A stretch of 64,000 bases of DNA. It comes from a virus. Its lineage: Duplodnaviria > Caudoviricetes. Position numbers and translations under genes: made by a program. The notes beneath the pieces are model-generated. The model had not been told where the DNA came from and did no database searches. It worked only from the letters and a program-made list of their open reading frames with translations. Below, one piece after another: positions 3,096 to 31,932 of the stretch (position 1 is its first letter; every line of letters starts with the position of its first letter). Location: the IMG/VR virus record IMGVR_UViG_3300037349_000099, positions 2,076-66,075 of that record, one strand, 5' to 3'.

Positions 3096-3141
3096 TTACA
3101 CACAATAACCGGGAACATCGAAACACGGAGGAATCACCGCA

Positions 3142-4856: not shown

Positions 4857-4945
4857 TTTAACCAGTTTGGCGGTGCCCTCCGTCGCCGCCAAAGACCCCT
4901 GCCGCCGTTCAAGCTACGACAGAAATCGCAAAGCGAAAGTAAGTC

Positions 4946-5167
4946 GTGAAAGCGGGAAGCGGCAGGGGATTCAAGATTCGGGAGGACGCTTTGATTCAAT
5001 GCCCCTCATGTCACGGACTCGGCCTGTTGAAGAGGAGTGGTCCTCACACCTACATGCCAACGGTCAACGTGATCTACACGCGGCGCTGCATCAACTGTGG
5101 TGGCACGGGGAAGGTTCCCGACACCGCGATCGACAACAAGCAACGAGCAGCAGGAGACACCGAATGA
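4946..5167 (+). CDS. Small DnaJ-type zinc finger protein
   Basis: Two CxxCxGxG motifs (CPSCHGLG, CINCGGTG); stop overlaps next ATG. Confidence 0.6.
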   Translation: MKAGSGRGFKIREDALIQCPSCHGLGLLKRSGPHTYMPTVNVIYTRRCINCGGTGKVPDTAIDNKQRAAGDTE

Positions 5168-6438
5168 CGCAACTCGTAAAGATTCGCCCCGCCCCGCCCT
5201 TATCGCAGTCCCTGGTGAAAACCTTGGGCTGCCCAAGGAGCTACAAGGCTATCGTGATCGATGGCCTCAAGCCTCCCCCGTCCGGCCCCAGCGACCGCGG
5301 CACAGAGGTCCACGAGGTCGCCGCCGCATATACCGACCACTGCGTAGCCAACAAGGTTCCCGGCGACTGGACCGCCTTCGACCGCATCGCCGCATTGGTT
5401 GGCGCCGAGGCCTTCGCCATCCTCGAAGGTGTCCGAGACAACTACGTTGTGGACTTCGAGCACGTTGTCGGCACGGAGATTTGGTTCTGCCTGAATGAAG
5501 ACTTTCGACCCATGCAGATCCCGAGGGAGTCCGACAACTGGACCCGCGAGCAGAAGGAAACTTGGGCGGCGAACCACGGAATCGCTTATCAGGGAACCAT
5601 CGACATTGGTCTGCTGGATGGCAACGCAGGATTCATCGACGATTGGAAGTCTTCGATCAGGCCATTCGACGCGCCAGACGAGCAGAGCGATGAGTACGCC
5701 GTCGCCTGGTTCATGCTCAACCCGTTCATTGAATCTGTCACCTTCCGGTTCCGCTTCGTCCGGTACCGCAACTGCGAGCGCACCGCCGAATACACCCGCG
5801 CGGATCTTCCACGGCTGATGTCAGCATTGGAGCACTGGCGCGCCAAGCAATTGGCCATCCACGAGCACCCCGAGCGCGCCGAGGCGATCCCGTCCAAGCA
5901 ATGCCTCTACTGCCCGCTACTGAATCAAGGTTGCCCCATTGACCCCGCCGTGAACCCCTACGCCGGCCGTGATCCGCTCCAGTGGACTAAGAGGCTCGTG
6001 TACCTCACCCGCGCGATGAAGCAGGCCAAGGAGATTCTCAAGGAGGCTCTTGAGGCGACTGGCGAGCCCATCGAGTATGTTGATGGCACAGGCGAGCGGT
6101 ACTTCTTCGGCAAGAAGGCGACCGAGAGCGAAGTCTTTCCGCTGTTTGAAATGGACGCCAACCGCAAGGTGGTGATTCGTGACGACCAGGGGCAACCGAG
6201 GATGCCGATTGTCGATGCTCTCGCAGACTGGTTCGGCGTGGCTCCCGACGATGCCCCTCTCTTCAAGGGAATCAACATCTCCAGCACTGGCCTGAAAGCA
6301 CCGTTGAAGGCTGGCAAGCGCGCCATCATCCACCAGGCCGTCATGGATAACACGCGGAAGGTCACGAAGGTGAAGCTGGCACTGCACCAGCCGGACGACG
6401 ACCCTGACGATGAGCAAAGGGAACGGGAAGGCGAATAA
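5164..6438 (+). CDS. PD-(D/E)XK RecB/Cas4-like exonuclease
   Basis: LSQS..CPR, RGTEVHE, GTID...IDDWKS, C-terminal C..CP....CP; near recT. Confidence 0.85.
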   Translation: MTQLVKIRPAPPLSQSLVKTLGCPRSYKAIVIDGLKPPPSGPSDRGTEVHEVAAAYTDHCVANKVPGDWTAFDRIAALVGAEAFAILEGVRDNYVVDFEHVVGTEIWFCLNEDFRPMQIPRESDNWTREQKETWAANHGIAYQGTIDIGLLDGNAGFIDDWKSSIRPFDAPDEQSDEYAVAWFMLNPFIESVTFRFRFVRYRNCERTAEYTRADLPRLMSALEHWRAKQLAIHEHPERAEAIPSKQCLYCPLLNQGCPIDPAVNPYAGRDPLQWTKRLVYLTRAMKQAKEILKEALEATGEPIEYVDGTGERYFFGKKATESEVFPLFEMDANRKVVIRDDQGQPRMPIVDALADWFGVAPDDAPLFKGINISSTGLKAPLKAGKRAIIHQAVMDNTRKVTKVKLALHQPDDDPDDEQREREGE

Positions 6439-6517
6439 ATTGCGGAAGTCTTGCTACAATGGGGGAGCCGGATGTTTCCGCACCCGGCTCATTCACAGCC
6501 GCCATAGGAGGGCAGCC

Positions 6518-7033
6518 ATGACACCCCACGAGCCAAATTATCGCACGATTCCGTTGACACGCGGCATGTGCGCCGTAGTGGACGCTAAAAACTTTGAAGA
6601 TCTCAATAAATGGAAGTGGTTCGCGCTAAAGGCCGTAAAGCGCGGGCGTGTCCATTTCTACGCCGCGCGCAGTACCTGCCACGCAATAAATGGGCCTGGC
6701 ACGGTGTTGATGCATCGTCACATTCTAGGGCTCCAGAAAGGTGATCGGCGGCAAGGTGACCATAGGGAACCCGCATTGACCCTCGTTAACGTCGAGGGAA
6801 ATCTACGAATCGCTACGTCCTCTCAAAATGCAGCTAACTCTGGGGTGCGCAAGAGCAACCTATGTGGGATCAAGGGCGTAGGTTTCTATAAGCCGACTGG
6901 TAAATGGAGAGCGATGATCGCCCCACAGGGGAAGGGTATAAATCTGGGATACTTTGCTACTCCCGAACTTGCTCAGGAGGCTTACCGCAAGGCAGCAGAG
7001 AAGTATTTTGGCGAATTTTCACGCACCAAATAA
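6518..7033 (+). CDS. HNH endonuclease with C-terminal AP2 domain
   Basis: IPLTRG..AVVD, MHRHILG...DH...NLRIAT..QN, KGV...GKWRA.I....LGYF.T.E.A..AY..AA..YFGEF. Confidence 0.92.
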   Translation: MTPHEPNYRTIPLTRGMCAVVDAKNFEDLNKWKWFALKAVKRGRVHFYAARSTCHAINGPGTVLMHRHILGLQKGDRRQGDHREPALTLVNVEGNLRIATSSQNAANSGVRKSNLCGIKGVGFYKPTGKWRAMIAPQGKGINLGYFATPELAQEAYRKAAEKYFGEFSRTK

Positions 7034-7042
7034 AGGAGAATC

Positions 7043-7738
7043 ATGGGAAAGCAAGCAAGGAAGTTAAGTGATTTCTTTGGAGCTCGCCGCCGTTCAGCAA
7101 CCTTGCTGTCGTCGCAGCTCCTTCGCAGCAAAGGGAAAGAGCGCCGGATGAAACTCTCCGTCACTATGCCCCTGAGCAACACCGATGTTCTGGGCATCCC
7201 TATCCAGTTTCAGAACCAGCTCAACGTGATGGAAAAGCAGGACGCGGCAACCAACCGGGCCAGCATCGACGTGGAGTTTGACTCGATGGGCGTCCGTATC
7301 TTCTCAACCGCCGCTAACGTCGAGCCCGTCGTTTCCATCAATGGCGCACTGCTCCACAAGTTTGCGATGGTGGCCGATGGGGTTGGCGACAAGCGCGCTG
7401 TGTCGCTGGACTTCCTGATCTACTTGCCGGCGACTCCCGAACTCCGCGCGTGGGAGTGGGATACGATTCATTCCGAATTCTTCCTCGAAGCCGTCAAGGC
7501 GCAAGGCTCTCTGGACCTGAGCGGAGAGGCGGAAGATGAGGACAATGACGAGGAGAGCAACGGACCTGTGCTGACCCAGCCGCCGCCAGGCAAGCGCGTG
7601 GTTGTCGTGCCGCCTGCGGCCAAGAGCGGACCAAAGCAGTTGGCGGGGTTCCACGCCAGCGAGGGCCAGCCGGAGAAGCACGCGCACATCGAGCCGCCAG
7701 CGACGACCAGGCGCAAGCCGGGCAGCAGGTTCAACTAG
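7043..7738 (+). CDS. Hypothetical protein
   Basis: AAGGAG RBS; 231 aa with acidic/Pro-rich tail. Confidence 0.75.
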   Translation: MGKQARKLSDFFGARRRSATLLSSQLLRSKGKERRMKLSVTMPLSNTDVLGIPIQFQNQLNVMEKQDAATNRASIDVEFDSMGVRIFSTAANVEPVVSINGALLHKFAMVADGVGDKRAVSLDFLIYLPATPELRAWEWDTIHSEFFLEAVKAQGSLDLSGEAEDEDNDEESNGPVLTQPPPGKRVVVVPPAAKSGPKQLAGFHASEGQPEKHAHIEPPATTRRKPGSRFN

Positions 7739-20190: not shown

Positions 20191-23100
20191 TTATACCACC
20201 GGACCTACTGCCGGACCTTTGAATTTAGGCTTCGGATTCAAAGCGTCCGAGTAGGCTTTCTTCATCGTCACCTTTTGCTCCGCACTCATGTCGCTGTCGT
20301 CGTCAATAGTTCTCGCCTTGTGCCCAATCACCGGCCTGAGTTGTTTCTGCTCGTCCGGTGTGGCAGCAAGGTAGACGTTCAGCGCCTGCTCGTGATGCAG
20401 ATCCCGCGTGGCTGCGACGATGGGCTGCACTCTAGCCTGAAACCTTGCTTTAGCCAGGTCGCTCTCGTCCAAGATGTCAGCCGTCTTATAGGCGTCGATC
20501 ACCTTCTGATCGAACCCGGGCTTGCCTGTAGCTTTGGCTCGGTACATATCTTCGACAACATGCTTGGCATTGCGGCGGTCGGCCTCTCGCTGCGTCCTGG
20601 TGCCCGGCGTGTAGTTGGCGCGCTCGTAGTCCCGCGCCATGTTGACAGCCTTCGAGTTCTGGATGAAGGCGGGAGCTTGGTTGAAGCCGAAGAAACTCTC
20701 GGCAACTGGAGCCGGGTTATGGATGGCGGTCTGGATCATGGACCATGCGTTGTCTTGTGCGCCTCTCTCTTCGAGGAGATGGGCTGCTCCTGTGGCTGAG
20801 AACGGCAACTCCTGCTTTGCTGACCACCCTGCGAACTCTTCGGCCTGCTTGGGCGCTGAGTCGTCCGTGTGCCGTATCTCGGTGCGGTAAAAGTCTTGGT
20901 TGTTGATCGCTTGACCGATGACACTCCAGAGCGGCGCAATCTTGTTGATGACCGTCTGTTCCGGATGCTTGACGAAACTCACGATCTGGTCCGGGTATCC
21001 CGCGATGGAGTGCATGATACCGTGTGAGTCCTCGATGTAGAGGTAGTGCAGTGGGTCTTTGGGAAGATGCCCCGTGCAGAGAAACGTGCCCGCCGCTCCC
21101 AGGATCGCCGTGCAGAGGAACGAACTGAGGGCAAATGACATCCTCGGGGTGATCCTCGCCTCTTTCCCATGGCCGGTGGCGACAAGACCGGCAGCCTTCG
21201 CGGTGTCCACGATGGCTCCGCCGTAGATTCTCACGTCGCCATTGGTGTATCCAACCGCCCTGAATGTCAACTGCAGCGCATCTTTCAGCCCGCGAGGCCA
21301 GAAGCGATTCTCGTAAACGATCTGCCCGAACCTGTCGTCCACGGCGTCCCATGCCTCCTGCATACGCTCGCGGAGTTTTTCGGGTGTCCAGTTCTTTTTC
21401 TGCGCCTCTTCTAAAAGGTTGTGAGCCATCAGGTAGAAGGCTCCAATCTTCATCTTCGGCACCCAGAATTCAAGGACAGGCCACACGCCGGCTTGAAGCA
21501 GTGCGCCCGGCAGGGACTTCGCCTTATCCCAATTGGTGCCGCTGTTCCACGCATTGATTGCCTTCCGAATCGGACTCAACTCCAGAGTAGATGGAGCAAG
21601 CCTTCCGCCCGATCGCGCAATCCAGTCGGCCTCCTTCTCCATCTCCGGGTAGGTGCCGGGCTTCATATACTCGCGGGTTGCCTTCCATCCGTTCTTGATG
21701 GTCCGTACCAGAGACGGCAGGAGGGCGATTCCGGCCAGAGCGTTGCCAGCGGCCTTGACGGGCTTGCCCTGGAAGAGCTGCTCGACACCCAGGGAAACAT
21801 CAGATGCCGCCGCGTTGACGGTCGTAACCGTCGCGTGGAAGGCTGAGATGCCCAACTGCATAGCGTTGAGGTTATTGTTAGCCCAGCGCAGCGCGTCGAA
21901 TATCGCAGACCGGCCCGCGAGTCCCTTGGACACGAAGTTGTTGAACACCTTGGCTGCATCAGCCGGGGCCCAGTAGTGGCCGGTGATGACCAGAGCTTTG
22001 CCGCTGGCATCTTCTAAGTCTTCGATGGCAATGCTGGGGATGGGACGCTTGCCGCCCATGTAAGTCTTGTCGTAAGTCGCGCCCTCAACCTTCTGATCGT
22101 CGATCGTGGTGGCGCGGCGCCATACTGTGCCGATCTTGTCGTCGATTTTGTCCCAGCCTTCCGGCGCTTGCGTTCCGGCTCTGACAAACTTGGCTGTCCC
22201 CGAGTCCTTAATCACCTTCAATAACTGGTGCGCCATGATGAATTGGTCCATCTCGTAAATCTTCATCAGTGCGCCGCGGACAGGGTTCCATGTTGCCGGG
22301 GTGAGCCCGATGTCGATGCCGTCGCGCGTGGTGGGGATCTTCCGCTGCTTCCTGAATGACGCCTTGCCTTCTAGTGGGCGCTTGCCGACGCCCATGAACT
22401 TCTTAATCGTCTTGCGGGCTAGACTGGGGCGCTCCCACCAGTGGGCGAAGTAGTTGTCGATCCAGTCATTGATTGGACCAAAGCCCATGGCGTCGATGTA
22501 GTCCTTGCGCTCCTGATACGCCTTCTCAAGTATCCCGGCCAACTGCTGATCCTTCACACTGAGGTCGGCCACTGTCTTGCCGCCAACATGCTCCACAGCA
22601 TCGGCAAAGGCTAGAAAGTCAGCCCTGGGGCGCTTGTCCCATGCGTTCGACTCCTGCTCCAGCGCAGCCAGCGCGCGGGCCATGCGGCGGTCCATCTGGC
22701 CACGCTCCTCGCGCATGATAGCTTGCTGAGTCTTTCCGGGCGTGGGACCGTCGCCAGCCCACTGGTAGATGCCGCCAGCCATGCCGGGGAATAGTTGGTT
22801 GACAACTGCGGGGTTGAGGAAGCCGAAGGCGGAGAGGGTGCCGGAGTCGGGGAGGTTGGCGCCACGACCGCCCTGCAGGAACTTCTTGGCCGTGTCTTTC
22901 GGGCTGGAAGGTTCCGGACCATCCTCTACGTCGTCGCCCTCTTCCTCTTGTTCCTCTGCCGGCTCAGGCTCTGCGCTGGTATCGACCTCTGCTGCGGTCT
23001 CTTCCTTGTCCGCCTGCGAACCAGAGTTGACGTTGCCCAGACCGAGGCGCTTCTCAACCTCATCAAGATCGGCGCGGACCTTCTCCAGTTCCTTCTGCTC

Positions 23101-26100
23101 GGGGAACTCCTCGCGATCGGCGAGCTTCTGGAATTGGGGCTTGTCCTCTTCGTTGGCCGCAATCGACTTGACTTCGCGCGCAATATGCTTCGGGATGCTG
23201 CGCATATTGGCTTCAATGGAGCGCACGAGCGACTCCATCGTGTACTGAGGCGCGCGGTTGTTGTGGAAGTAACTGCTGGATTCCTCGAACTCCAGGTCAT
23301 AAGAGACGGAGGGAACGTCTATCCAGTGGGTCCCGTCCTTGCCGATGACATTAGGGTCATGCTCCTTGATGGTTCCCGTCGGATCAACCGATACCTCGAC
23401 CCCGTTTACCTTCATATAGAAGCGAACCCCGGGTATGGCCATCGCTTCGATGTACTCGCCCGCCGATTTGCGATCGGTGAACTTCTTGCCGTCAACCTCC
23501 ATTGTGAAGCCGTCGCCGTCCGGTCCCTTGGCCTTGTCGATGGCTGCCTGGGCCAACTCCATGCGAATAACGGCGCGCTTTGAGCTGGCTATGCTGCTAT
23601 CGATGCTGCGCACTCTGGAGTGCGCATCCCGCTTCGATGCCTCAAACCCGCGCTCCACGGTCTGCAACTGCGCCAGCTTCATTTCGAGGTCGTACTTGAG
23701 CTTGATGTCGGGATTGCCCGACGCGGCAACCTTCATCTCCTCCAGCGACATAACCATATCCGCGGCTGCATCGGTAATCGTGCGGCTGGCAGAACGTCCG
23801 GAAAGAATCTGCGAGAGGAACTCGGCTTTCGATTGCAATGTTTGAGCCATGTACGCGTCGAAACTGCGCTCGGTCAGGTAGTTGTAGATCCGCACCGACT
23901 TGTTCATGTTCCCTTGGCGCAGGATGCGACCCTCGCGCTGGGTGAGGTCGCCAGGCCTCCAGGTAAGGTCGATGTGATGGAGAGCTTTGAGGCGCTGCTG
24001 TGCGTTCGTACCTGCGCCCATGCGCTGCGTTGACCCCAGCAGGATACGGACGTCGCCAGCGTTCACCCGTTCAAACAAGGCTTGGCGTTTCGCCCTGGTG
24101 TTGTAGTCCCCGATGATGGCGATTTCCTCGGGCTTGACCCCGCCGTCGATCAACTTCTGCCGCATGTCTTTGTATAGGTTGAGGAGTTCGTTGTCCTTGT
24201 CGTCCGTCGCCCGGTACATATCGAGGAAGACCATTTGCGTGAGTTTATCTTCCTCGCCCGCACGGTGTTCCTTGAGGATTTGGCGGACGGCAACATTGAT
24301 CTTCGAATCAACCTCGTCCTTGATTGCAGCGTCCAGCAGGCGCAGGTCTGTGGCAGCCTTCCGGCCCTCGCTCGTGACCTTGAGCATGTTGTCTTCGTCG
24401 GGGCGCACACTACCGCTCCGGATGGCCTCCGCGCGCTGCATCAGGTCTTTGACAACCTCGTCGAGCTTCTCGGAGCCTGGGACCGTGATTACGATGGGCT
24501 TGCCACCTTCAAGCTCTGGCCGCTTTAGATTCAGGTCGGCCGCCGTCTTCACATCGGCAAAGGCGCGGAACATGCGCATCAACTCTGGCACGTTCTGGAA
24601 GCGAGCAAACTTGGACCGGGCCTTGAAGCTGCGCCCGTCTGCCGAGAGTTCCATCGCCGTGATGACGCTGCCGAAGTTGGCCGCCCAGTCGTCGAAGTAT
24701 TTGATTCCGGCGCGCTCCAGCACGTCTGGCGCAACATACTTCATCATCGTGTAGAGTTCGGCCATCGTGTTCTGTACGGGTGTTCCTGTGGCGAAGAAGA
24801 CGCCGCGGCCGTTGTTTACTTCCTGCAGGTACTGGAGTTTGGCCAGAAGACGGAAGGACCGTTTCGAGTTCGCCTGCTGCAATCCGGCAATGCGCTGCAT
24901 CTTCGTGAAGTATTTGAGGTTCTTGTACTCGTGCGCCTCGTCGATAAACAGGGCATCCACGCCGGTATCGTCGAACCCGATGGCCTTGTCGGCCTTGAGG
25001 TCGGAGAGTTCCTTCAACCTTTCCTTGAACTGGAGACGGGACTTCACCAACTGCTTGACCGTTTGGCTCTTGCGCTTCTGCTTGTCCGACGCTGCTTTCG
25101 CTTCGGCCTGTTCAATGGTCAATCCTGCGTAATCCGGGTCGTCGGCAATCGCGCCGCGCAGCGCATCGTCCAGTTGATCTATCTCGCCCTGGATCGTCTT
25201 CTTCTGGCGCTCGGGCGAGATGTCCATGAGGTTGAACTGGGAGTGGGGCAGGATGATGCAGTCGTAGTCGCCGGTCGCAATCTGGCTCATAATGCGCTGG
25301 CGGTTCTTCGAGTCGAAGTCTTTCTCGGTCGGCACAAGGATGTTCGCACCGGGGTAGAGAAAGAGAAACTCTTTGCGGAACTGGTCGACGATATGGTTGG
25401 GCACGGCGATCATTGGCTTCTTGAAGACGCCAGTGCGCCGGCCTTCCATAACCGCAGCGACCATTTCGAACGTCTTTCCAGCGCCAACCTCGTGCGCAAG
25501 CAGCGCGCGCCCGTCCTGAATCATGCGCCAGATGGCATTGACCTGGTGGGGTTCGAGCTTGATTTCCGGGTTCATGCCCGGGAAGGTGAGGAAACTGCCG
25601 TCGTACTCCTGCTCGGCCAGGTTGTTGAAAGCGTAGTTGTACGCCTTTTCCAGTGGCTCTTTCCAGTCCTTCGAGTTCAGTGCCCACTTCTGGAACTCCT
25701 GCCGGATACGCTCCTGCATGGCGCGGGCATTGGTGGTCTCATCGGCATTGAGTATCTGCTTCTTATCTACGATGTCGTAGATCGTGGTCTGCTTGAGATT
25801 TAGCGCGTCTTGCAACAGGTCCGCACCATGGATGCGCTGGGTAGCCCACTGGTTCGTGTTCTCCGGTGTGCGGGAGTTGTCGAGTTCCACGCTCCACGTT
25901 CCATCTGTGTATGTGAATGTGCCATCGCTCTTGAATGTGTCTTTGGCGAACTGCTCCAGGGCTGGGATGGGAATCCACGTTCCACCGAGCCGAACAGAAA
26001 TGCTGGTCGCCGGATCGTCGGTGATGTGGAGGAATGCAGGCTGCACCTTTTCCAGTGCATCGACGTTGGCCTGGTACTCTTTGTTGCCCTGGGCGACCGC

Positions 26101-29100
26101 TGCTTTGGCGTCGTCGAGTTTGGTCCGGACATAGCCAGAAAGGTACTTCTCGCGGGTTTGGTACTCGCCACTGATCGGGTCACGGAACAGCACACCAGCA
26201 TCTATCAGGCTCTGCGCAGCCTCCTTGGGCGTCTTGCCCTGGAGTTGCGCCATGAGGTCAACGTCGGGGTAGCCGCGCTCGGCAAGGACTTGCTGCAGAG
26301 CTTCGCCGGGGTCTTGAGAGATGGACGTGAGGGACTGCCGGGGGTAGATGGTGCGCTTGCGGAAGATGTCGGCGGGTGTCGATTCCTTCTTTGCCCGGTC
26401 GTAGTTCTCCAAGGCCAGCAGGCGAGGATAGTGCGGATCTTCATTGAAGATGCGGTTAGCCGTTGAGTTGACCAGCCCGTACTGCTTGACGAACGAGTTG
26501 TACTGCTTTTCGAGTTGCGCGCGGGAGTGGGCAATCTGCTTGTTCGATGCCTCATCGTCAGGCAGTGTCTTCATTTCGTAGAGCAACCGATTCATCGTCT
26601 CCCGCAACTTAACCATCGCCTTGATGCGCGAGGTTTTCGGGATGCTCTTGATCTTCCCCTTGTCCATGGCCGCCGGCGGATAGACAAGTTTCCCCTCCCG
26701 CCGCTGTTTGAGGATGCCCTTGTCGTCCACAACGTACTGATATTCCTGCACGTTGTCCTCAGCGTAGACGGCCTCGGTCTCTGCCTGGTTGGCGCCGGTC
26801 GGCTTCGGTGCCGTCTTGACGATGTTCTTGGGGATGCGGTCGAGGGCTTCTTTCAACAGGTCGGCGATTGGCCGCTCTGGTTTCTTCAAGGCGAATCGCT
26901 GGTTGCCGCGCATCTTTTTCGACGATACTGCGGTTCCAAGCATATTTTCTGGGTGCGCCAGATAATACTCGTTGAATGGATGCTCGTGCATTTTTCCCGG
27001 CTCCTGCTCAAGCGGGAACTTTGTAGGCACTGCTTTCATCCACGACTCGCCGCCGGGTTCCTCGCCTGGAAGCCGCTTGCGCAGGATGATGAGGTCGGTC
27101 GTTACGTCCGTGCCGGCGTTCGCCTTGAACGCGGAGGATGGAAGGCGGAAGGCGGAAACAAGGTCGGCCTGTCCTGCCAGGGCCTCACGAATGGCGGAAC
27201 TCTGCCGGTCCATGGTGCCCGTCGAAGTGATGAAAGCGACCAGCCCGCCGGGTTTCACCTTGTCCATGGACTTCACGAAAAAGTAATCGTGGAGCATGGC
27301 ATTGAGTTTGGGATAGTTGCGGTCGTAGACGTTGACTTCGAAGAATGGGACGTTGGAGATGGCGAGGTCCATCTCGTTGTTGGGCAGGATCAGGTCTTCG
27401 AATGGCTTATTGAATATCTGCGCCTCGGGGTAGAGGAGCTTAGAGATTCCAGCCGAGACCGTATCTTTGTCGTTTCCAACCGCCTGCACCTTGGAGCGGA
27501 TCTCGGGCGGCATCATGCCCAGGAAGTTGCCCACTCCCATGGCTGGCTCAAGCACGTTGCCGGACTTGAAGCCCATCTTCTTCACTGCATCCCACATGAA
27601 CCGGACCAGCTCGGGAGATGTGTAGTGAGCGTTGATGGTCGAGTCTTCGGCTTCCTTGTACTCGTCTGGCGTCAGGAGTTCCCTGAGCCGCTTGTTGGCC
27701 GCTCTCCACCGTTCGCGCTCACGCTTGTACTCGGGGGTCTCTGTGGCCTTGTTTTTCCAGTAGCGGGCCTGATAGTCGTAGCCGCCTTCGGGGCTGTAGT
27801 CCTCGGGCGATTCTTCTTCGCGGGACTGTTTGAGGTACTCCTCATTGAACACGCGCGAGAGCGCACCCCAGCCGACGTAATTGGCGAGCTTAGTCTTTTC
27901 GTCGTCTGTGGCTTTGCGGGGGTTCTGCTGGATGTCGCGGAGAATCTCAAGGGCTGCCATGTTGCCATCGAGCTTGGCGAGAGGACCGCCGGATATGGCC
28001 CAGTCCTCGGGATGCTCGTACCAGTCCTTGTTGCGCCTAGGGGTCGGCTTGCGGGATTCCTTCTCCGCTTCCTCTATTACTGGTCCTGCCGGGGAAAGAT
28101 CAATTCCCTCATCGCTTCCCGCCCCTGGTCCGGGTTGTGGCCGGCCGCTTCGTACTCTTGGAGCACCCGGACGCACGACAGGGCCGTGTTCTTTATCGCC
28201 TTCTGGAGATAGTTCTGATTTATCAGTTCCCTCACGAACGCTTTCCGGTGCTGGCGCCACTCCCGCTCTATCTCGGCCTCCAGTATCGGCAGCCGGGCGT
28301 CCTCCTCCGGTTTCACTTCGACTCGTGGGCTCATGGGGTGCCTCCGTGCTGGGTTTAGTTTCCTCCTTCTCCACAGATTTTTCAACAGGCTTCTCGACTC
28401 GACCCGCGCTGCTGATCCTCATGCCGGGATACTTCTCGGCCAGCAACTGCTCGGCATGGCGTCGGTTCTCGGCCTCGATCTGGACCGTCTTCGGGTGCGG
28501 ATCGCCAGCGTACTTCGAGACTTCGGCCTCGTAGGTGTGCATTTCCGGCTTCGCACCTAGCGGGCTCGTCCCGGCCATTGGCGCTACCTGGGGAGTCGGA
28601 GGCTTGTAGAAGGAGCGTGCGGGCTTCGCGGCACTGACCTTCCGTCCTGCTTCAACGTAAAGTTTGTTTGCCTCTGAGCGTGGAATGTCCAACTGCTTCG
28701 CAATCTCGTCCACGACCCCGCCAGGATTGAACCTCTCCATGTCCGGGTTTGCTTTGATTATTGCGGCAGCCTGAGAAACTTTGTCTTCTACTTCTTCTTT
28801 CCCTTCCCCACCGCCTTGCTGACCCAGTGGCTTTTCTTCGCCGGCGGCATGGGCATCTGCTGCTGGCTTCCGCTCATCGGCGGCGCCTGCGGGTTTGGCT
28901 CCGGCATTGGAGCCTGCTGGTTTTTCTTCTTGCGGAACATCGACGCTCCGCTGACTCGCTGTTTCTGCATCGGCATTTGGTTTGCCGCTGATCCCAGGTT
29001 TTGCTGCATTGTTGTTATTCCCTTCCGGCTGCGGTTCAGCCAATAGCTTGCCTGTGTTGCGCTCGACCGGCACAGCCCTGTCGTCGTACAGGGATACCAT

Positions 29101-31932
29101 GTGCGGGTCCTTCACATCAGTCACGTCCAGGCGCTTGCCGACGTGCTTCTCGGTCCAGTCCTGAATCGCCTTCTTGACCTTGCCGTCCTTGTCGTCGGCC
29201 ACGCGCGCGGTCAGGATCTTGACGTTGTTCCCCTCGGCCAGCCACTTCTTGATGCGGTCGACCATCGGCTGAATCGGTTCGCCTATGACGGTTGGACCCT
29301 TGAAGCCGTCGTAGTGGGCCAGCGTCCCGTCGAGGTCCACGCCGATCCACTTGTCGCCCTTGGCTTCGGGCTGGGCTGATTCGGCAGGCTTTGAGCCACC
29401 CTCTTCCACCTTGCCCGCAACTGGCTGATTCTGCGCGGGTGGGGACTGGACTGATTCTTGGAATAGTTTGCGCTCCGCTTCCGCGACCGCCGTTCCCCAT
29501 GCTTCGGTGTCGTCGGGATTCAGTCCACGGCTCAGGAGGTCGCTCTTGATCTTGCGATACTCCTCTGGGGTAATCTCTCGCTCCGCCTTCTTCTCTTCTG
29601 GCTTCAAACGCTCAAATGGCGCTGCTGGCCATGCGCGCCCGTCGTCGGTCTTGACCCCAGCAACCTTGCGCTTCGGATCAACGTGCGTCACAGTGCCCGG
29701 CTTCTTGCCGTCCATCAGAACGCGGTCGCCCTTCTTCGGGGTGAAGGGGGTTTCCTGTTTTGGCACATCATTTGAGGCGTCGGGCGTGGTAGATGAGTTG
29801 CGCTGGTTGAAGGACTCCATCGCGGCATCGTGCGCAGCCTTGACTAAGCTCGCGTACTGGCGATGCTGGTCCATCTTCCCAGCGATCCTTGCGCGCTCCC
29901 CTTTTTCGTAGTCGGGATGCGTCAGGTCATTGACCGCCGCAATCTCTTTCGGCACCACCTGGAGTTCCGCCGAGTTCCCGTCCGGCGTCTTGACCTGGAA
30001 CGTGTGCGACCGGAAGCCGTAAGGGTCGGACCCCTTCTCAAAGTTGTCCTGCTCGCGCACGACCTGAAAGCTGTCCTTGATCTTCTGCGCTACCTGATCG
30101 CGCGCCGCTGGTGAGTCCACGACGATCCGGCCGCCGAGGTAGTCGGGAATGGTTTCCGCCGGCTGCTTCTCCTGGTCCAGCTTCTCGGCCAGGTCCGCCG
30201 GAGCCTTCTTCTCGCGGATGCCCTCAACTTTTGCGCCCGGTATGCCTTGGACCGTCGCATTGGCCTGCCGCTCCAGCCACGGAGCCTGGGCCTGCGCCGC
30301 CTTCTGCAAGGTGGCAGGGTTATCCGTCGATTGCAGGATCTGGCGTCCGGTGTCGGGTTCGTGCTTGCCGATGGGCTGTGGCTGGTTCGTCGCCTGCGCT
30401 GTGGCTGGCTGGAGAGGCTTGGGGGCATCCTTGGGTGGTACGGGGCGCGCGGGGACGGACGCCATGATTGCCGCGGCGAGCGCCTTGGCGTCGGATGGCT
30501 TCGGCGTGCTGCCTTTGTCCGGTGCAACCTGGGCGGGTTCGGGCGAGAGAGGTTTGCCAGAGAGCGCATCGGCCGCCGTGGCAAGGTTGGCCTGCTGGGG
30601 CGTGTTGGGCGCTTTCCCGGTCTGGGTGTTACGCACTGCCTCATCGAGTAGAGAGGATACAGCAGCATGCGCGTCGGCTGCGCGGTTGGCTCCCTCCATA
30701 TCGCCGCTCTCGTGAGCGCGCCGACCCGTCTCGTCGATTGCGTTCAAGAGAGCTTGGTTTTCGGCTGGCGTCTGGCTTGTCACCTTTCCGCGATGGTCGG
30801 CAACTATCTGATCCAGGAGTGATTGTTCTGCGTTCTGCGCCTGTGGGACCGGGGGTTGTTCCGGTACCGGCTTGGGACCGGCGTGGATGGTGGTCCCTTG
30901 CTCGCTCTCCGGGCCTTGTAGGGTATCGAAGATGTCGGCGGCGGTCGGGGTAGGCGGCTTTGGCGTCGGCGTCGGCGCGACAGTTTCGGGAACTTCTGGT
31001 GCTCCGAGTGGCTTGCCGCTGAGGGCGTCGGATGCGGATTGAAGATTGGGAGGGGGAGATTGAGGTGTTGGCGCTGGACTCGGTGCAACCTGCTCAGGTA
31101 CAGGCGGCGCGGCGGGCGGCTGGTTGGCGTTGATGCCTTTGCCTGCGCGGACAATCTCATCGGTGGCGGCAAGGTTATCGAGGTTGGGTGTCATTGTCGG
31201 CCCGGCTGGGCGTGGACTTGTGGGCGGAGGCTGGCCGCGCAGTTCGGCGGCACGGGCATTGCGTAGCCCCTCCCAACCTCCCAAGTCACGCGCTCCGAGC
31301 AACGCCGCAGCAGCTTGTGGCGCTCCAACCGTTACGGCTGCGAGTGCATCGCTTTCGTTGCCTGCTCCCTCTCCGGGGTTGGCATTTTGGATGAAGCGAC
31401 CGGCAACCGGCACGGCTTGGATAGCATGAGCGATGCTGGAGTATGGGTCTCCGCCCCTATAGGCGTCTACCGCTTTTCCTGCCTCCCCAGTCGCCCGCAT
31501 GAACTCGCCACCGACTCCCTCCGCAACCTGCACGGCGGGACCGCCAAGAGCTTCGGCGGCATTCCTGAACGGATGCCCCTCGAGGTCTTCTATTCTCTGA
31601 TCCCGCATCAGATTGGACTCTGCCACCGTGGCAGGGAGTCCAAGGTTGTGAGCCACCTTACCGATGTAGCTAGGTTCCGACTGGTTCGCTACAGCCTGCT
31701 CCGCTGGCGAAAGCGGCAACTGCTTGTTGTTCGGGACTGGCACACCTGGCCGGTTCTCAATGTCCTGCTGATATTGACTCTGCGGCTGCGCGGGAGCCTG
31801 CGCTCGCTGTACGGGCGCTGCCTTCGCTGGCGCTGGACCTTGCAGGCTATAACCGGGAGGCGGAGGAGGAGGGTCGGAATCTTGGAGGTCATATCCCGCT
31901 GGAGGAGGAGGAATCGTTGCGGCTGAGCCCAC
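20191..31932 (-). CDS. Giant (3913 aa) DarB-like polyvalent ejection protein: RelA/SpoT-like + KOW + HAD + N6-DNA methylase + SNF2 helicase + C-terminal helical domain
   Basis: DYLGGRIV/GFRSH/ELQ/H..YE (~29880-30290); VDLDGTL/TAR/K/DD (~29050-29350); YTS/LEPAMG.G.F/NVPF (~26900-28000); HEVGAGKT/DEAH/QREGRILRQGN (~23700-25570). Follows the ejection genes. Confidence 0.9.
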   Translation of the reverse strand: MGSAATIPPPPAGYDLQDSDPPPPPPGYSLQGPAPAKAAPVQRAQAPAQPQSQYQQDIENRPGVPVPNNKQLPLSPAEQAVANQSEPSYIGKVAHNLGLPATVAESNLMRDQRIEDLEGHPFRNAAEALGGPAVQVAEGVGGEFMRATGEAGKAVDAYRGGDPYSSIAHAIQAVPVAGRFIQNANPGEGAGNESDALAAVTVGAPQAAAALLGARDLGGWEGLRNARAAELRGQPPPTSPRPAGPTMTPNLDNLAATDEIVRAGKGINANQPPAAPPVPEQVAPSPAPTPQSPPPNLQSASDALSGKPLGAPEVPETVAPTPTPKPPTPTAADIFDTLQGPESEQGTTIHAGPKPVPEQPPVPQAQNAEQSLLDQIVADHRGKVTSQTPAENQALLNAIDETGRRAHESGDMEGANRAADAHAAVSSLLDEAVRNTQTGKAPNTPQQANLATAADALSGKPLSPEPAQVAPDKGSTPKPSDAKALAAAIMASVPARPVPPKDAPKPLQPATAQATNQPQPIGKHEPDTGRQILQSTDNPATLQKAAQAQAPWLERQANATVQGIPGAKVEGIREKKAPADLAEKLDQEKQPAETIPDYLGGRIVVDSPAARDQVAQKIKDSFQVVREQDNFEKGSDPYGFRSHTFQVKTPDGNSAELQVVPKEIAAVNDLTHPDYEKGERARIAGKMDQHRQYASLVKAAHDAAMESFNQRNSSTTPDASNDVPKQETPFTPKKGDRVLMDGKKPGTVTHVDPKRKVAGVKTDDGRAWPAAPFERLKPEEKKAEREITPEEYRKIKSDLLSRGLNPDDTEAWGTAVAEAERKLFQESVQSPPAQNQPVAGKVEEGGSKPAESAQPEAKGDKWIGVDLDGTLAHYDGFKGPTVIGEPIQPMVDRIKKWLAEGNNVKILTARVADDKDGKVKKAIQDWTEKHVGKRLDVTDVKDPHMVSLYDDRAVPVERNTGKLLAEPQPEGNNNNAAKPGISGKPNADAETASQRSVDVPQEEKPAGSNAGAKPAGAADERKPAADAHAAGEEKPLGQQGGGEGKEEVEDKVSQAAAIIKANPDMERFNPGGVVDEIAKQLDIPRSEANKLYVEAGRKVSAAKPARSFYKPPTPQVAPMAGTSPLGAKPEMHTYEAEVSKYAGDPHPKTVQIEAENRRHAEQLLAEKYPGMRISSAGRVEKPVEKSVEKEETKPSTEAPHEPTSRSETGGGRPAADTGGRDRAGVAPAPESVREGTDKSELSPEGDKEHGPVVRPGAPRVRSGRPQPGPGAGSDEGIDLSPAGPVIEEAEKESRKPTPRRNKDWYEHPEDWAISGGPLAKLDGNMAALEILRDIQQNPRKATDDEKTKLANYVGWGALSRVFNEEYLKQSREEESPEDYSPEGGYDYQARYWKNKATETPEYKRERERWRAANKRLRELLTPDEYKEAEDSTINAHYTSPELVRFMWDAVKKMGFKSGNVLEPAMGVGNFLGMMPPEIRSKVQAVGNDKDTVSAGISKLLYPEAQIFNKPFEDLILPNNEMDLAISNVPFFEVNVYDRNYPKLNAMLHDYFFVKSMDKVKPGGLVAFITSTGTMDRQSSAIREALAGQADLVSAFRLPSSAFKANAGTDVTTDLIILRKRLPGEEPGGESWMKAVPTKFPLEQEPGKMHEHPFNEYYLAHPENMLGTAVSSKKMRGNQRFALKKPERPIADLLKEALDRIPKNIVKTAPKPTGANQAETEAVYAEDNVQEYQYVVDDKGILKQRREGKLVYPPAAMDKGKIKSIPKTSRIKAMVKLRETMNRLLYEMKTLPDDEASNKQIAHSRAQLEKQYNSFVKQYGLVNSTANRIFNEDPHYPRLLALENYDRAKKESTPADIFRKRTIYPRQSLTSISQDPGEALQQVLAERGYPDVDLMAQLQGKTPKEAAQSLIDAGVLFRDPISGEYQTREKYLSGYVRTKLDDAKAAVAQGNKEYQANVDALEKVQPAFLHITDDPATSISVRLGGTWIPIPALEQFAKDTFKSDGTFTYTDGTWSVELDNSRTPENTNQWATQRIHGADLLQDALNLKQTTIYDIVDKKQILNADETTNARAMQERIRQEFQKWALNSKDWKEPLEKAYNYAFNNLAEQEYDGSFLTFPGMNPEIKLEPHQVNAIWRMIQDGRALLAHEVGAGKTFEMVAAVMEGRRTGVFKKPMIAVPNHIVDQFRKEFLFLYPGANILVPTEKDFDSKNRQRIMSQIATGDYDCIILPHSQFNLMDISPERQKKTIQGEIDQLDDALRGAIADDPDYAGLTIEQAEAKAASDKQKRKSQTVKQLVKSRLQFKERLKELSDLKADKAIGFDDTGVDALFIDEAHEYKNLKYFTKMQRIAGLQQANSKRSFRLLAKLQYLQEVNNGRGVFFATGTPVQNTMAELYTMMKYVAPDVLERAGIKYFDDWAANFGSVITAMELSADGRSFKARSKFARFQNVPELMRMFRAFADVKTAADLNLKRPELEGGKPIVITVPGSEKLDEVVKDLMQRAEAIRSGSVRPDEDNMLKVTSEGRKAATDLRLLDAAIKDEVDSKINVAVRQILKEHRAGEEDKLTQMVFLDMYRATDDKDNELLNLYKDMRQKLIDGGVKPEEIAIIGDYNTRAKRQALFERVNAGDVRILLGSTQRMGAGTNAQQRLKALHHIDLTWRPGDLTQREGRILRQGNMNKSVRIYNYLTERSFDAYMAQTLQSKAEFLSQILSGRSASRTITDAAADMVMSLEEMKVAASGNPDIKLKYDLEMKLAQLQTVERGFEASKRDAHSRVRSIDSSIASSKRAVIRMELAQAAIDKAKGPDGDGFTMEVDGKKFTDRKSAGEYIEAMAIPGVRFYMKVNGVEVSVDPTGTIKEHDPNVIGKDGTHWIDVPSVSYDLEFEESSSYFHNNRAPQYTMESLVRSIEANMRSIPKHIAREVKSIAANEEDKPQFQKLADREEFPEQKELEKVRADLDEVEKRLGLGNVNSGSQADKEETAAEVDTSAEPEPAEEQEEEGDDVEDGPEPSSPKDTAKKFLQGGRGANLPDSGTLSAFGFLNPAVVNQLFPGMAGGIYQWAGDGPTPGKTQQAIMREERGQMDRRMARALAALEQESNAWDKRPRADFLAFADAVEHVGGKTVADLSVKDQQLAGILEKAYQERKDYIDAMGFGPINDWIDNYFAHWWERPSLARKTIKKFMGVGKRPLEGKASFRKQRKIPTTRDGIDIGLTPATWNPVRGALMKIYEMDQFIMAHQLLKVIKDSGTAKFVRAGTQAPEGWDKIDDKIGTVWRRATTIDDQKVEGATYDKTYMGGKRPIPSIAIEDLEDASGKALVITGHYWAPADAAKVFNNFVSKGLAGRSAIFDALRWANNNLNAMQLGISAFHATVTTVNAAASDVSLGVEQLFQGKPVKAAGNALAGIALLPSLVRTIKNGWKATREYMKPGTYPEMEKEADWIARSGGRLAPSTLELSPIRKAINAWNSGTNWDKAKSLPGALLQAGVWPVLEFWVPKMKIGAFYLMAHNLLEEAQKKNWTPEKLRERMQEAWDAVDDRFGQIVYENRFWPRGLKDALQLTFRAVGYTNGDVRIYGGAIVDTAKAAGLVATGHGKEARITPRMSFALSSFLCTAILGAAGTFLCTGHLPKDPLHYLYIEDSHGIMHSIAGYPDQIVSFVKHPEQTVINKIAPLWSVIGQAINNQDFYRTEIRHTDDSAPKQAEEFAGWSAKQELPFSATGAAHLLEERGAQDNAWSMIQTAIHNPAPVAESFFGFNQAPAFIQNSKAVNMARDYERANYTPGTRTQREADRRNAKHVVEDMYRAKATGKPGFDQKVIDAYKTADILDESDLAKARFQARVQPIVAATRDLHHEQALNVYLAATPDEQKQLRPVIGHKARTIDDDSDMSAEQKVTMKKAYSDALNPKPKFKGPAVGPVV
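28077..28334 (-). CDS. Nested out-of-frame 85-aa protein (TnpV-like pattern) inside the giant gene
   Basis: GGAGG-N6-ATG at 28334; amphipathic helical sequence (EREWRQHR..FV.EL.....L...RELIFP), while the main frame is R/G/P-rich linker. Confidence 0.65.
   Translation of the reverse strand: MSPRVEVKPEEDARLPILEAEIEREWRQHRKAFVRELINQNYLQKAIKNTALSCVRVLQEYEAAGHNPDQGREAMRELIFPRQDQ
28788..29009 (-). CDS. Second nested out-of-frame ORF (73 aa, Met/Pro/Lys-rich)
   Basis: GGAAGGGA purine tract ~9 nt before ATG; confined to the linker just after the HAD domain. Confidence 0.4.
   Translation of the reverse strand: MQQNLGSAANQMPMQKQRVSGASMFRKKKNQQAPMPEPNPQAPPMSGSQQQMPMPPAKKSHWVSKAVGKGKKK

Follow-up and report, generated by a model that had tools for sequence, protein, structure and literature searches.

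A small gene probably nested out of frame in a linker of a giant DarB-like phage gene

Can 258 bases in the middle of a phage gene of 3913 codons also code for a second protein and, if so, which of the two reading frames came first? The question is raised by a stretch of 64,000 nucleotides from a virus of the Caudoviricetes (positions 2,076 to 66,075 of IMG/VR record IMGVR_UViG_3300037349_000099), hereafter called the window, in which an initial annotation made from the letters alone pointed to an 85-codon open reading frame (ORF) inside, and out of frame with, a giant gene. The best explanation, which we consider well supported and quite probable, is that these 258 bases code for two proteins, a disordered tether of the giant protein and the product of an older, independent gene of 85 amino acids. 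The giant gene and its recognizable parts are located as follows:

20191 to 31932, minus strand: giant host gene of 3913 codons, of the DarB-like polyvalent virion type, with RelA/SpoT-like, methylase and SNF2/ResIII helicase regions and a long C-terminal part
29953 to 30207, minus strand: RelA/SpoT-like region, residues 576-660 (22.4 bits, below the Pfam cut-off of 27)
26533 to 28040, minus strand: start of the methylase module, comprising conserved N-terminal helices and an N6-adenine methylase region (alignment A6, 68% mean column identity)
23911 to 25563, minus strand: SNF2/ResIII/Helicase_C region, residues 2124-2674 (Pfam search)

The predicted giant protein has the hallmark of DarB-like polyvalent proteins: among its several modules, an N6-adenine methylase is fused to an SF2/SNF2 helicase. 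Its gene matches, by blastn, genes annotated as 'DarB-like antirestriction' or 'PLxRFG domain-containing protein'. The Pfam scores for SNF2-rel_dom (28.4 bits) and ResIII (24.7 bits) both exceed their cut-offs, while Helicase_C remains below its own (22.4 bits). No Pfam methylase model matches the giant protein; the methylase is assigned because the DNA of this part is similar to genes annotated as DarB-like or as DNA methylase, and because of alignment A6. The N-terminal part of the methylase module may correspond to LPD36, a name taken from excerpts of PMC5512222. As in P1 DarB and in the polyvalent proteins that those excerpts describe for phages and conjugative elements (Iyer et al. 2017), a methylase and an SF2 helicase are paired after a conserved N-terminal domain in a multi-module giant. 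Packaging in the virion is known for P1 DarB and JC1 gp69 (PMC5512222 and PMC9144972, both in excerpt), the latter being a relative of the giant protein that was found to be virion-associated by mass spectrometry (PMC9144972, in excerpt).

The nested ORF runs from an ATG at 28334-28332 to a TAA at 28079-28077 and occupies the +1 frame of the giant gene (gene nucleotides 3599-3856). The features of the overlap are:

28077 to 28334, minus strand: putative nested small gene, 85 codons plus TAA, based on sequence, translation, homologues, AlphaFold2 model and selection
28341 to 28345, minus strand: GGAGG, Shine-Dalgarno-like (SD), 6 nt (CACCCC) ahead of the nested ATG
28083 to 28313, minus strand: core of the small gene, with 87% DNA identity to the stand-alone copy L024, the similarity ending at both core ends
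28075 to 28335, minus strand: dual-coding stretch, in which the giant frame reads a linker (giant residues 1200-1286)
28074 to 28076, minus strand: further stop of the small frame (TAG), immediately following the TAA; the same TAG position is the stop in locus L001

The GGAGG, the spacer and the ATG at 28334 that opens 85 codons are all found in the sequence as first described, and the translation of 28077 to 28334 matches the protein quoted at that time. The ORF was also said to lie just before the methylase domain, and about 12 codons indeed separate its stop from the methylase module. By itself, the length of the ORF is no better than chance: the giant gene contains 11 same-strand, alternate-frame ORFs of at least 85 codons that begin with ATG, and the nested ORF is the shortest of these. 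Comparison lifts it above chance: it has independent homologues, its start is conserved and selection is specific to its frame. In a screen of the giant gene, its site is the only place where the identity in an alternate frame exceeds that in the giant frame in all four related loci, and no further nested genes at homologous positions emerged. An alternate-frame signal of 45 amino acids elsewhere in the giant gene appears against locus L005 only and is unconfirmed.

Nested copies of the small ORF are found well beyond the window. We checked 16 loci for the relative frame, counted as the same when small start minus giant start equals 1 mod 3. In all of them the ORF is nested in this same relative frame and the small frame is intact. 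These loci comprise the window, L001, L003, L004, L005, L029, L030 and L039, a Brucella plasmid-phage, Erwinia phage PEp14, Klebsiella LASTA, Pseudomonas USP_18 and Itty13, Vibrio VvAW1, Microcystis Mwe-JY07 and Agrobacterium Atu_ph08. Five further phages have a copy by tblastn only. The arrangement is thus widespread, as the initial annotation had thought possible. It had also predicted that annotation pipelines would miss the gene, and in the records whose annotation was inspected only the giant gene is annotated over the nested ORF. Being fully enclosed by a longer same-strand gene, the nested gene is one that automatic gene callers cannot report. The nested copies sit in phage late operons. 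The modules upstream of the nested ORF, and those between it and the methylase, vary among loci; in Atu_ph08 and PBC5, for instance, an extra domain is inserted between the nested ORF and the methylase module.

The start of the nested ORF is well preserved. All of the nested starts compared (n = 14) are ATG, and 10 of these are preceded by an SD duplex of -6 kcal/mol or lower, compared to 11.8% of random positions in the same loci. The pairing of the window's GGAGG with the anti-SD reaches -9.5 kcal/mol, while that of the remaining four starts is weak (only -2.6 in L004). An N-terminus of the form MNL[NQ]xW is common to seven phages, and stand-alone homologues, which are discussed below, start at the same place as the nested ORF. 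Absence of homologues, stops in the frame and loss of the ribosome-binding site had been named beforehand as signs against a gene; homologues exist, and neither of the other two signs is the rule, with 16 frames out of 16 intact and most SD sequences strong.

These start signals also bear on the possibility, in our judgement very unlikely, that the small frame is instead reached by ribosomal frameshifting or through a genomic frameshift of the kind seen in PBC5, in which case a truncated N-terminal product would end in the bundle as its C-terminal domain. In PBC5 as recorded, the small ORF shares its frame with the 1100+ codons of the N-terminal giant part, and the methylase part is read from a separate opening. 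This record dates from 2002, and a sequencing error may account for the single nucleotide by which it differs from Atu_ph08. The best match of the small protein among predicted viral structures (Q8W6J4_2, TM 0.71), which is part 2 of a two-part long viral protein and which we take to be the in-frame PBC5 ORF, would suit a frameshifted product, and so would the 28 codons for which the small frame of the window is open ahead of the nested ATG. In PEp14 and LASTA, however, a stop occurs two codons ahead of the nested ATG, so that the small frame opens only there. The uniform ATG starts with their SD enrichment and the start site shared with stand-alone homologues equally argue against frameshifting. 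According to the preferred reading of two independently started proteins, translation of the small protein would begin internally on the late mRNA of the giant gene, using the SD and ATG of the nested ORF. No sigma-70-like internal promoter was found in 27800-29000, using a weak scan that may not suit the host. One RNA run (X1) yields two short contigs identical to 27098-27358 and 27901-28134, most of 27000-29500 being uncovered, which is no sign either way; such contigs from an RNA library cannot tell the two frames apart and may derive from DNA in the library.

Selection was estimated for each frame with our own OLGenie-like script, based on p-distances and a codon bootstrap. For five Acidobacteriota-type nested loci (73 codons), the ratio is 0.65 [0.53-0.81] in the small frame and 1.38 [1.10-1.77] in the giant frame. 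For eight phages of proteobacteria and cyanobacteria (84 codons), it is 0.60 [0.49-0.73] and 1.03 [0.88-1.22], respectively. The pattern is reversed in a control from the methylase region, where the giant frame reads 0.34 and the +1 frame, although supposedly neutral, 0.83-0.86. The ratios are moderate, and synonymous-type sites are near saturation. The small frame is under purifying selection, and there is none at the amino-acid level on the giant frame. The frame-specific dN/dS comparison that had been proposed for this locus hence places the constraint in the small frame and not in the giant one. In its sequence, conservation and selection, the nested ORF behaves as a functional out-of-frame nested gene would.

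A relic or a chance ORF, i.e., an engulfed gene that is no longer expressed or a frame left open by high G+C, is highly improbable in our view. The 11 comparable ORFs in the giant gene, the ease with which giant-type and small frames tolerate each other and a broken copy in locus L011 would be compatible with it. Yet the purifying selection on the small frame is seen in two separate nested sets, the ATG and SD are conserved, the structure model is confident and none of the 16 nested loci has lost the frame. Moreover, a clade of eight nested-only copies extends across phages of gamma- and alpha-proteobacteria and of a cyanobacterium.

What does the giant frame encode over the same bases? Residues 1200-1286 consist for 83% of G, P, R, E, S, A, D and T, compared to 56% for the whole protein, and for only 11% of hydrophobic residues, compared to 26%. 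In an AlphaFold2 model of the giant frame, model residues 14-93, which correspond to the overlap, stay under a pLDDT of 50 and form no secondary structure. Composition, model and lack of selection agree with the R/G/P/E-rich filler that was initially seen here, and the giant frame over the overlap is an unconstrained linker, disordered according to the model. The giant gene would read the 258 bases as a G/P/R/E-rich tether between its N-terminal modules and the methylase-helicase module, and the sole evident requirement on the giant frame in this region would be the absence of stop codons.

The origin of the overlap can be approached through relatives of the small gene that occur without it. 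A giant gene is absent within 6 kb in 38 of the 42 metagenome loci and in five of the seven genome loci with relatives. Among 28 distinct stand-alone copies, 10 have a stop-free giant-type frame, and the mean number of stops is 1.0 in the giant-type frame versus 4.8 in the other frame; the giant frame is the only alternate frame of the small gene in which stops are naturally scarce. (At locus L049, a giant-type frame of 395 codons was dismissed as a chance opening, the real gene being on the other strand.) In the family tree, the label nested or stand-alone needs six changes, at least three of which are forced by well-supported branches. From these sequences, the small gene appears to be older than the overlap. 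It was probably free at first and was engulfed once the giant ORF was read across it.

The window itself carries a mosaic copy. Over the 90 nt upstream, identity is 92% to nested L001 and L029 and 50% to stand-alone L024; over the last 156 nt of the core, it is 85% to L024 and 57-60% to nested copies, which places a recombination break inside the nested ORF. The nested copy still behaves as a gene unit, the body of the window's copy having more in common with a stand-alone copy from a chromosome than with the nested copies found in sister phages. One could also read such a joint as a nucleic-acid element, either an RNA structure or a recombination joint that shuffles modules of the giant gene, conserved without any protein being made. 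The break within the ORF fits this, as does the 92% identity of the 5' part and the upstream 90 nt between the window and L001 or L029 while modules further upstream differ. We give it hardly any credence, as the substitutions are of a protein type (conservative at hydrophobic positions, with variable N-termini), the homology between the two phage sets shows up in protein or profile comparisons only (23% identity, hhalign E 6.5e-11) and stand-alone protein homologues are called in many contexts.

A gene that encodes an 85-amino-acid protein thus remains the preferred reading, and its product belongs to a large family of small proteins that mostly stand alone and are carried by mobile elements. 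Sixteen other called proteins of 49-96 amino acids are 56-92% identical to it, and 99 clusters match at E<=1e-3 among 1.84 billion representatives, nearly all of 36-250 amino acids. The homologue search suggested at the outset does find homologues, most of which stand alone. AlphaFold2 models the protein with a pLDDT of 84.1 and a pTM of 0.73, giving helices at residues 15-29, 31-39, 43-63 and 68-79; it is confidently predicted to fold as a four-helix bundle, in keeping with the helical protein anticipated from the translation. Named relatives are scarce. Direct searches of Pfam and PHROGs with the protein gave nothing usable, a sequence search of solved structures with profile A3 had a best E of 0.55, and Foldseek of the model against the PDB gave no match at E<=0.001. 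A tblastn search against phages returned only Itty13 (E 0.2), which the profile later showed to be a true relative. In the ESM Atlas, none of the nearest clusters has a name; a score of 0.79 for a cluster whose members are 11% TnpV is a lead only.

The likeness to TnpV that had been noted initially holds as probable remote homology but not as a match to the family model. Comparison by hhalign with A7, a single tight cluster in which one out of five members carries the PF14198 label, gives a probability of 97.0% (E 1.2e-10) for A3 and of 98.5% for A5. The Pfam TnpV model (PF14198) has no match to the 85-amino-acid protein at E<=0.1, and a six-frame search of the whole phage record with this model yields nothing at E<=10. 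Five of 70 family members match it below threshold, the best at 24.9 bits compared to a gathering threshold of 27. At the profile level, the small-protein family is probably a remote relative of TnpV. It resembles the TnpV proteins of clostridial Tn4451-type and related transposons in size, all-helical nature and residence on mobile elements. Unlike these, the window protein has no adjoining serine recombinase or Mob context, and no recombinase occurs near family copies among the minority of neighbours that were scanned. The role of TnpV is itself only postulated, as Xis-like, in the consulted part of PMC3158075.

The best structural match, over 71 aligned residues, is PG0816 of Porphyromonas gingivalis (PDB 2apl; rmsd 3.2 A). 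Its Z of 7.3 compares to 6.4 for the next row and lies below the level trustworthy for helical bundles. Foldseek aligns the model with 2apl at TM 0.56 and E 6.5, and no significant sequence link of the window protein to PG0816 was found. One family member matches Pfam DUF1896 at E 0.0066, the family to which we assume 2apl to belong.

Genomic context gives few functional clues. Stand-alone copies neighbour an XRE-type HTH gene and unknown ORFs, and no conserved partner is present immediately upstream in the five stand-alone genome loci, where the upstream ORFs are mutually unrelated. Domain fusions were considered as a clue and rejected: longer proteins that end in the small-protein domain carry Sel1 repeats or nothing recognizable, and the small gene's own start is still found inside at least one of them. 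With this start retained, the longer proteins are therefore probably upstream ORFs that continue in the same frame.

The nested position nonetheless invites the idea, already part of the initial annotation, of a protein that serves the DarB-like methylase-helicase module specifically, as chaperone, inhibitor or packaging adaptor, and is nested for joint production. We regard this as possible but doubtful. In 14 of the 16 nested loci the small ORF has kept its site directly ahead of the methylase module, both products would share one late mRNA, with no internal promoter-like site, and P1 DarB needs helper proteins (PMC9144972, in excerpt). The fixed site can, however, also be put down to inheritance, an overlap being difficult to lose once formed. 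Modules upstream of the nested ORF and between it and the methylase are variable, and most relatives of the small gene lack a giant gene nearby. Furthermore, Ralstonia phage Gervaise, a Massilia plasmid and phage P1 have a DarB-type gene but no copy anywhere, P1 darB thereby differing from the window gene; the nested gene is therefore dispensable for a DarB-type module. Nor is the small protein related to P1 Ulx, which was rejected as an equivalent (hmmsearch of A3 and A4 against all forward-frame pieces of P1 darB-ulx, best E 0.089). A complex prediction of the small protein (A3) with the first 516 residues of the methylase module (A6) scores 0.24 against a mark of 0.32 and is evidence neither way. 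By analogy, the small protein could act autonomously, a view for and against which we see about equal grounds. It would then be a TnpV-type accessory, possibly a protein- or DNA-binding helical bundle, and not an obligatory DarB partner.

Out-of-frame embedded genes are well known in phages, e.g., Rz1 inside Rz of phage lambda and the overlapping genes of phiX174. As in these, a small ORF, complete and with a start of its own, occupies the +1 frame of a longer gene on the same strand, and relatives keep both frames open. Differences concern classical overprinting, in which the embedded frame is new (for viral overprinting in general, see PMC8227390, consulted in part). Here, the embedded gene has free relatives and carries the selection, the host is a polyvalent gene of about 3900 codons whose long frame is unconstrained, and the embedded unit recombines with chromosomal copies. 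The usual story would be reversed, with an embedded gene that is old and constrained and a long frame that is new and unconstrained. In a word search, the paper on polyvalent proteins (PMC5512222) shows no mention of overlapping, frameshift, linker or TnpV.

Such read-through would offer a concrete route for fusing multi-gene operons into polyvalent giants. As a broader and tentative proposal, polyvalent giants may grow by reading through pre-existing small genes in their one alternate frame without stops by nature. The DNA of these genes would then serve as disordered linkers while the genes persist as live, separately translated cassettes that go on recombining with free copies on chromosomes. 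If true, the linkers of giant virion proteins would, in general, be a place where unannotated genes hide. More immediately, the records of a dozen or more cultured phages apparently lack a conserved protein-coding gene. Some carriers are studied for therapy or biocontrol (LASTA, SJM3, SopranoGao, PEp14, Pavtok and Atu_ph08), and the nested TnpV-like protein would, if the reading is true, be an unrecognised late protein of PEp14-, LASTA- and Itty13-type phages. The nested start could be knocked out in cultured phages without altering the giant protein, and the system offers a tractable handle on a large unnamed family of small proteins as well as on TnpV-like proteins. As a separate observation, locus L004 contains what appears to be a second case of a gene hidden in a giant-protein linker.

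The virus record comprises 66,075 bases and is rated complete; the window covers nearly all of it and includes a terminase large subunit gene and a tail-fibre gene. The nested open reading frame (ORF) and its giant, DarB-like host gene are laid out as follows.

20191..31932, minus strand: giant ORF of 3913 codons, with the small ORF in its +1 frame at gene nt 3599-3856
28345-28341, minus strand: Shine-Dalgarno-like GGAGG, followed by the spacer CACCCC and the ATG
28334-28332, minus strand: nested start ATG, with 85 codons open downstream
28079-28077, minus strand: nested stop TAA, with a TAG directly after it

The initial annotation had described GGAGG-CACCCC-ATG opening an out-of-frame ORF of 85 codons before the methylase module, and every detail of this is correct in sequence and translation. 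In the giant protein, SNF2 and ResIII helicase matches exceed the Pfam cut-offs, while Helicase_C and RelA/SpoT matches fall below them (the RelA/SpoT-like region, at window 29953-30207, giant residues 576-660, scores 22.4 bits). A weak DpnD/PcfM-like match lies at window 28429-28491 (residues 1148-1168). The methylase part shows DNA similarity to genes in 36 phage and 11 plasmid records, annotated as 'DarB-like antirestriction', 'PLxRFG domain-containing protein' or 'DNA methylase'. Since the giant gene contains 11 alternate-frame, same-strand ATG-ORFs of at least 85 codons, of which the nested one is the shortest, length alone is insufficient, and it is the comparative evidence that decides.

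Relatives of the small gene were found at four loci in viral contigs, seven in species-representative genomes (six Acidobacteriota MAGs and one Acetobacteraceae MAG) and 42 in metagenomes. A giant ORF reads through the small one at L001, L003, L004, L005, L029, L030 and L039, where L004 has the sequence of MAG locus L009 and L005 shares its contig with L050. With P0117, a distant family member, tblastn gave an out-of-frame match within a PLxRFG giant gene annotated on a plasmid of Brucella pseudintermedia. The family HMM, run over stop-to-stop pieces of the fetched phage loci, identified short alternate-frame ORFs in Erwinia phage PEp14 (E 4e-22), Klebsiella phage LASTA (E 3.6e-20) and Pseudomonas phage USP_18 (E 3e-11). 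Homologues in other phages, as initially proposed, were recovered by HMM in USP_18 and by tblastn with the PEp14 and Brucella ORFs in 21 phage records, representing 12 phages (PEp14, Pavtok, Stean, SopranoGao, LASTA, SJM3, Itty13, Atu_ph08, POI1126, VvAW1, PBC5 and Mwe-JY07). In 19 of these records the match falls on a feature that is the giant gene or part of it; in both Itty13 records it falls on a 'hypothetical protein', which is on the opposite strand in the GenBank record examined. Frames were verified in Itty13, VvAW1, Mwe-JY07 and Atu_ph08, and the offset of the small start from the giant start is 1 mod 3 at each of the 16 loci checked. None of the GenBank records examined annotates the small ORF itself. 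Acidobacteriota-type and PEp14-type proteins match each other in hhalign (97.1% probability, E 6.5e-11, 23% identity). PEp14 and USP_18 carry exactly one copy each, and three DarB-type records (Ralstonia phage Gervaise, a Massilia plasmid and phage P1) contain no copy anywhere.

A few loci deviate from the common layout. In Itty13 (L020, MW460249; 1-6279), three hypothetical CDSs are annotated opposite a giant-homologous frame that is open across all 2092 codons examined; annotation has apparently placed the giant gene on the wrong strand. In Sinorhizobium phage PBC5 (L019, AF448724; 2700-3310), the N-terminal 1100+ giant codons share the frame of the small ORF, so that 'orf33' ends with the helical domain; from 2733 onwards, the methylase part is open in the usual frame. 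The frames of PBC5 and Atu_ph08 part just past the common peptide ...SSAAEVE, which may reflect genuine variation or an old error in sequencing. The Acetobacteraceae MAG contig L011 (5877-6413) holds a decayed copy with an internal stop in the small frame and a giant-type frame that is also broken; 198 residues still align to the L004 giant protein at 33%.

Selection on the dual-coding bases was estimated with a self-written, OLGenie-style method that classes sites and differences by their effect in both frames, with a codon bootstrap. Across five Acidobacteriota-type nested loci (73 ungapped codons), the ratio is 0.65 (0.53-0.81) for the small (+1) frame and 1.38 (1.10-1.77) for the giant frame; across eight proteobacterial and cyanobacterial phages (84 codons), it is 0.60 (0.49-0.73) and 1.03 (0.88-1.22), respectively. 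In the methylase control just downstream, the +1 frame yields 0.83-0.86, the estimator being biased slightly below 1 for a neutral frame, and the giant frame 0.34. The small frame is thus constrained over the overlap and the giant frame is not, and because the pattern reverses in the control, the estimator discriminates between frames. Together with the constant frame relation, these small-frame ratios bear out the earlier suggestion of a widespread gene within a gene that has escaped annotation. When the whole giant gene was screened against four related loci, only the nested stretch had higher alternate-frame than giant-frame identity at a homologous place, in all four (47-68% versus 31-58%). 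A 45-aa stretch in the +2 frame at window 28694-28819 (giant nt 3114-3239), 47% identical to L005 versus 29% in the giant frame, appears at a single locus and may have arisen by chance.

The view that the giant frame reads as filler here agrees with its selection ratios and with its predicted structure. In an AlphaFold2 model (7-row alignment) in which the overlap spans residues 11-97, pLDDT is below 50 and secondary structure is absent over residues 14-93; in the methylase N-terminal domain, helices reappear and pLDDT again exceeds 80. G/P/R/E/S/A/D/T make up 83% of giant residues 1200-1286, within the overlap, versus 56% of the whole giant protein, and the hydrophobic share is 11% versus 26%. 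All 14 nested starts are ATG, and 10 of the 14 show an anti-SD duplex of -6 kcal/mol or lower, versus 11.8% of random positions. Seven phages have the N-terminus MNL[NQ]xW in common. A frameshift-fusion model finds no room in PEp14 and LASTA, because their small frame opens just two codons ahead of the ATG.

The majority of relatives are not nested. Stand-alone copies, which no giant ORF reads through, account for five of the seven genome loci; one is nested and one (L011) broken. Among the metagenome loci, stops close the giant-type frame in 38 of 42, inside the small ORF or at most 273 codons away on at least one side; the apparent long giant-type opening at L049 is a product of chance. A divergent XRE-type HTH gene (71-72 aa) lies 0.1-2.2 kb upstream in 19 stand-alone loci, and two or three conserved ORFs that belong to no Pfam family follow downstream in 15-16 (in L006, for example, 4929-5147 on the minus strand, 6275-6658 and 6655-7419). 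Sel1-repeat genes occur in the neighbourhood as well. The arrangement has the look of a mobile or regulatory module of Acidobacteriota that has not been described. The 28 distinct stand-alone copies average 1.0 stop in the giant-type frame versus 4.8 in the other alternate frame, and 10 of them have none in the former. Reading through in the giant-type frame therefore costs zero to few mutations, and as only this frame is cheap to read through, the frame relation is always the same. In a maximum-likelihood tree of 44 distinct rows out of 53 (nine identical rows left out), the eight nested copies of proteobacterial and cyanobacterial phages group in a single clade, and nested and stand-alone labels interleave in the Acidobacteriota clade. 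The label needs six changes, of which well-supported branches make at least three unavoidable. The small gene would be the older element and the giant frame over it derived. Just downstream of the stand-alone copy in L008, a 26-residue remnant of the methylase-module start (6287-6364; DW..HP.DW motif) suggests an origin of this free copy within a giant gene.

In the window, the small gene combines nested-like and stand-alone-like segments in a mosaic. The 90 nt upstream (window 28335-28424, just ahead of the conserved core) match nested L001 (5911-6000) and L029 at 92% versus 50% for stand-alone L024; over the last 156 nt of the core, nested L001, L029 and L039 reach 57-60% versus 85% for L024; in the 90 nt downstream, L001 and L029 reach 59-63% versus 49%. 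This fits recombination exchanging the small-gene body between a nested and a free copy, in either direction, and the giant protein evidently tolerates wholesale linker replacement. Modules further upstream differ between these phages; in L001 they include a domain with an HxT[IL] motif and another large domain, both absent from the window. Because the 90 nt are 92% identical despite these differences, the linker may also serve as a joint for module exchange.

A word-indexed protein search returned 16 other proteins (49-96 aa, 56-92% identity), all separately called genes in metagenomes or genomes. In their alignment, the N-termini vary and are followed by a conserved core, PEEDARLPILEAEIEREW...TALxC...G..PDQ.REA..LI.P. 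Among 1.84 billion representatives, a profile search matched 99 clusters at E<=1e-3, 31 at 1e-10 and five at 1e-30, nearly all of 36-250 aa. AlphaFold2 (25-row alignment) confidently predicts four helices (pLDDT 84.1, pTM 0.73). The best structural match, PG0816 (2apl; Z 7.3 over 71 aligned residues), is below the reliable range for helical bundles; among predicted viral structures, the closest is Q8W6J4_2 (TM 0.71), probably the PBC5 ORF ending with this domain. None of 38 proteins from the family-profile search carries a Pfam label, and the small protein has no Pfam model. The resemblance to TnpV noted initially would hold as remote homology, but not at the level of the Pfam model (PF14198), which matches neither the small protein nor anything else in the phage record. 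Sub-threshold matches occur in five of 70 diverse members (best 24.9 bits, cut-off 27), one of which has a 73%-identical relative labelled PF14198, and both phage-type alignments match that relative's cluster in hhalign (97.0% and 98.5% probability). These several weak signals point towards TnpV, and the small protein would be a remote relative rather than a member by Pfam's criterion. TnpV's own role is only postulated, in PMC3158075, to be Xis-like.

The small protein may well act autonomously, as a TnpV-type accessory protein; that it is dedicated to the giant protein is possible but less likely. Stand-alone relatives exist, and some DarB-type elements lack the gene. No promoter-like site was found upstream of the nested gene, and the protein would be made by internal initiation on late mRNA. 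Two contigs from one metatranscriptome library, identical to window 27098-27358 and 27901-28134, offer no more than a hint of transcription across the giant gene region. Full-text literature searches brought up no account of a gene nested within DarB-like or PLxRFG genes. A word search of Iyer et al. 2017 (PMC5512222) gave no match for 'overlapping', 'frameshift', 'linker' or 'TnpV', and such a gene is not mentioned in 12 of the 21 matching places of the JC1 paper (PMC9144972) or in any of the 4 of the LASTA paper.

A second small ORF (about 60-75 aa; MLDQQTIAEFQERARKL...HHFSPEAL), not found in the window, is nested in L004 (4852-5079), about 1 kb further upstream within the giant gene; it uses the same alternate frame and again overlies a low-complexity stretch of the giant frame. 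Its homologue is free in L010 (5494-5667), directly upstream of the first small gene, and fused in frame to that gene in L012 (5812-5982), whose sequence is also that of L052 and L053.
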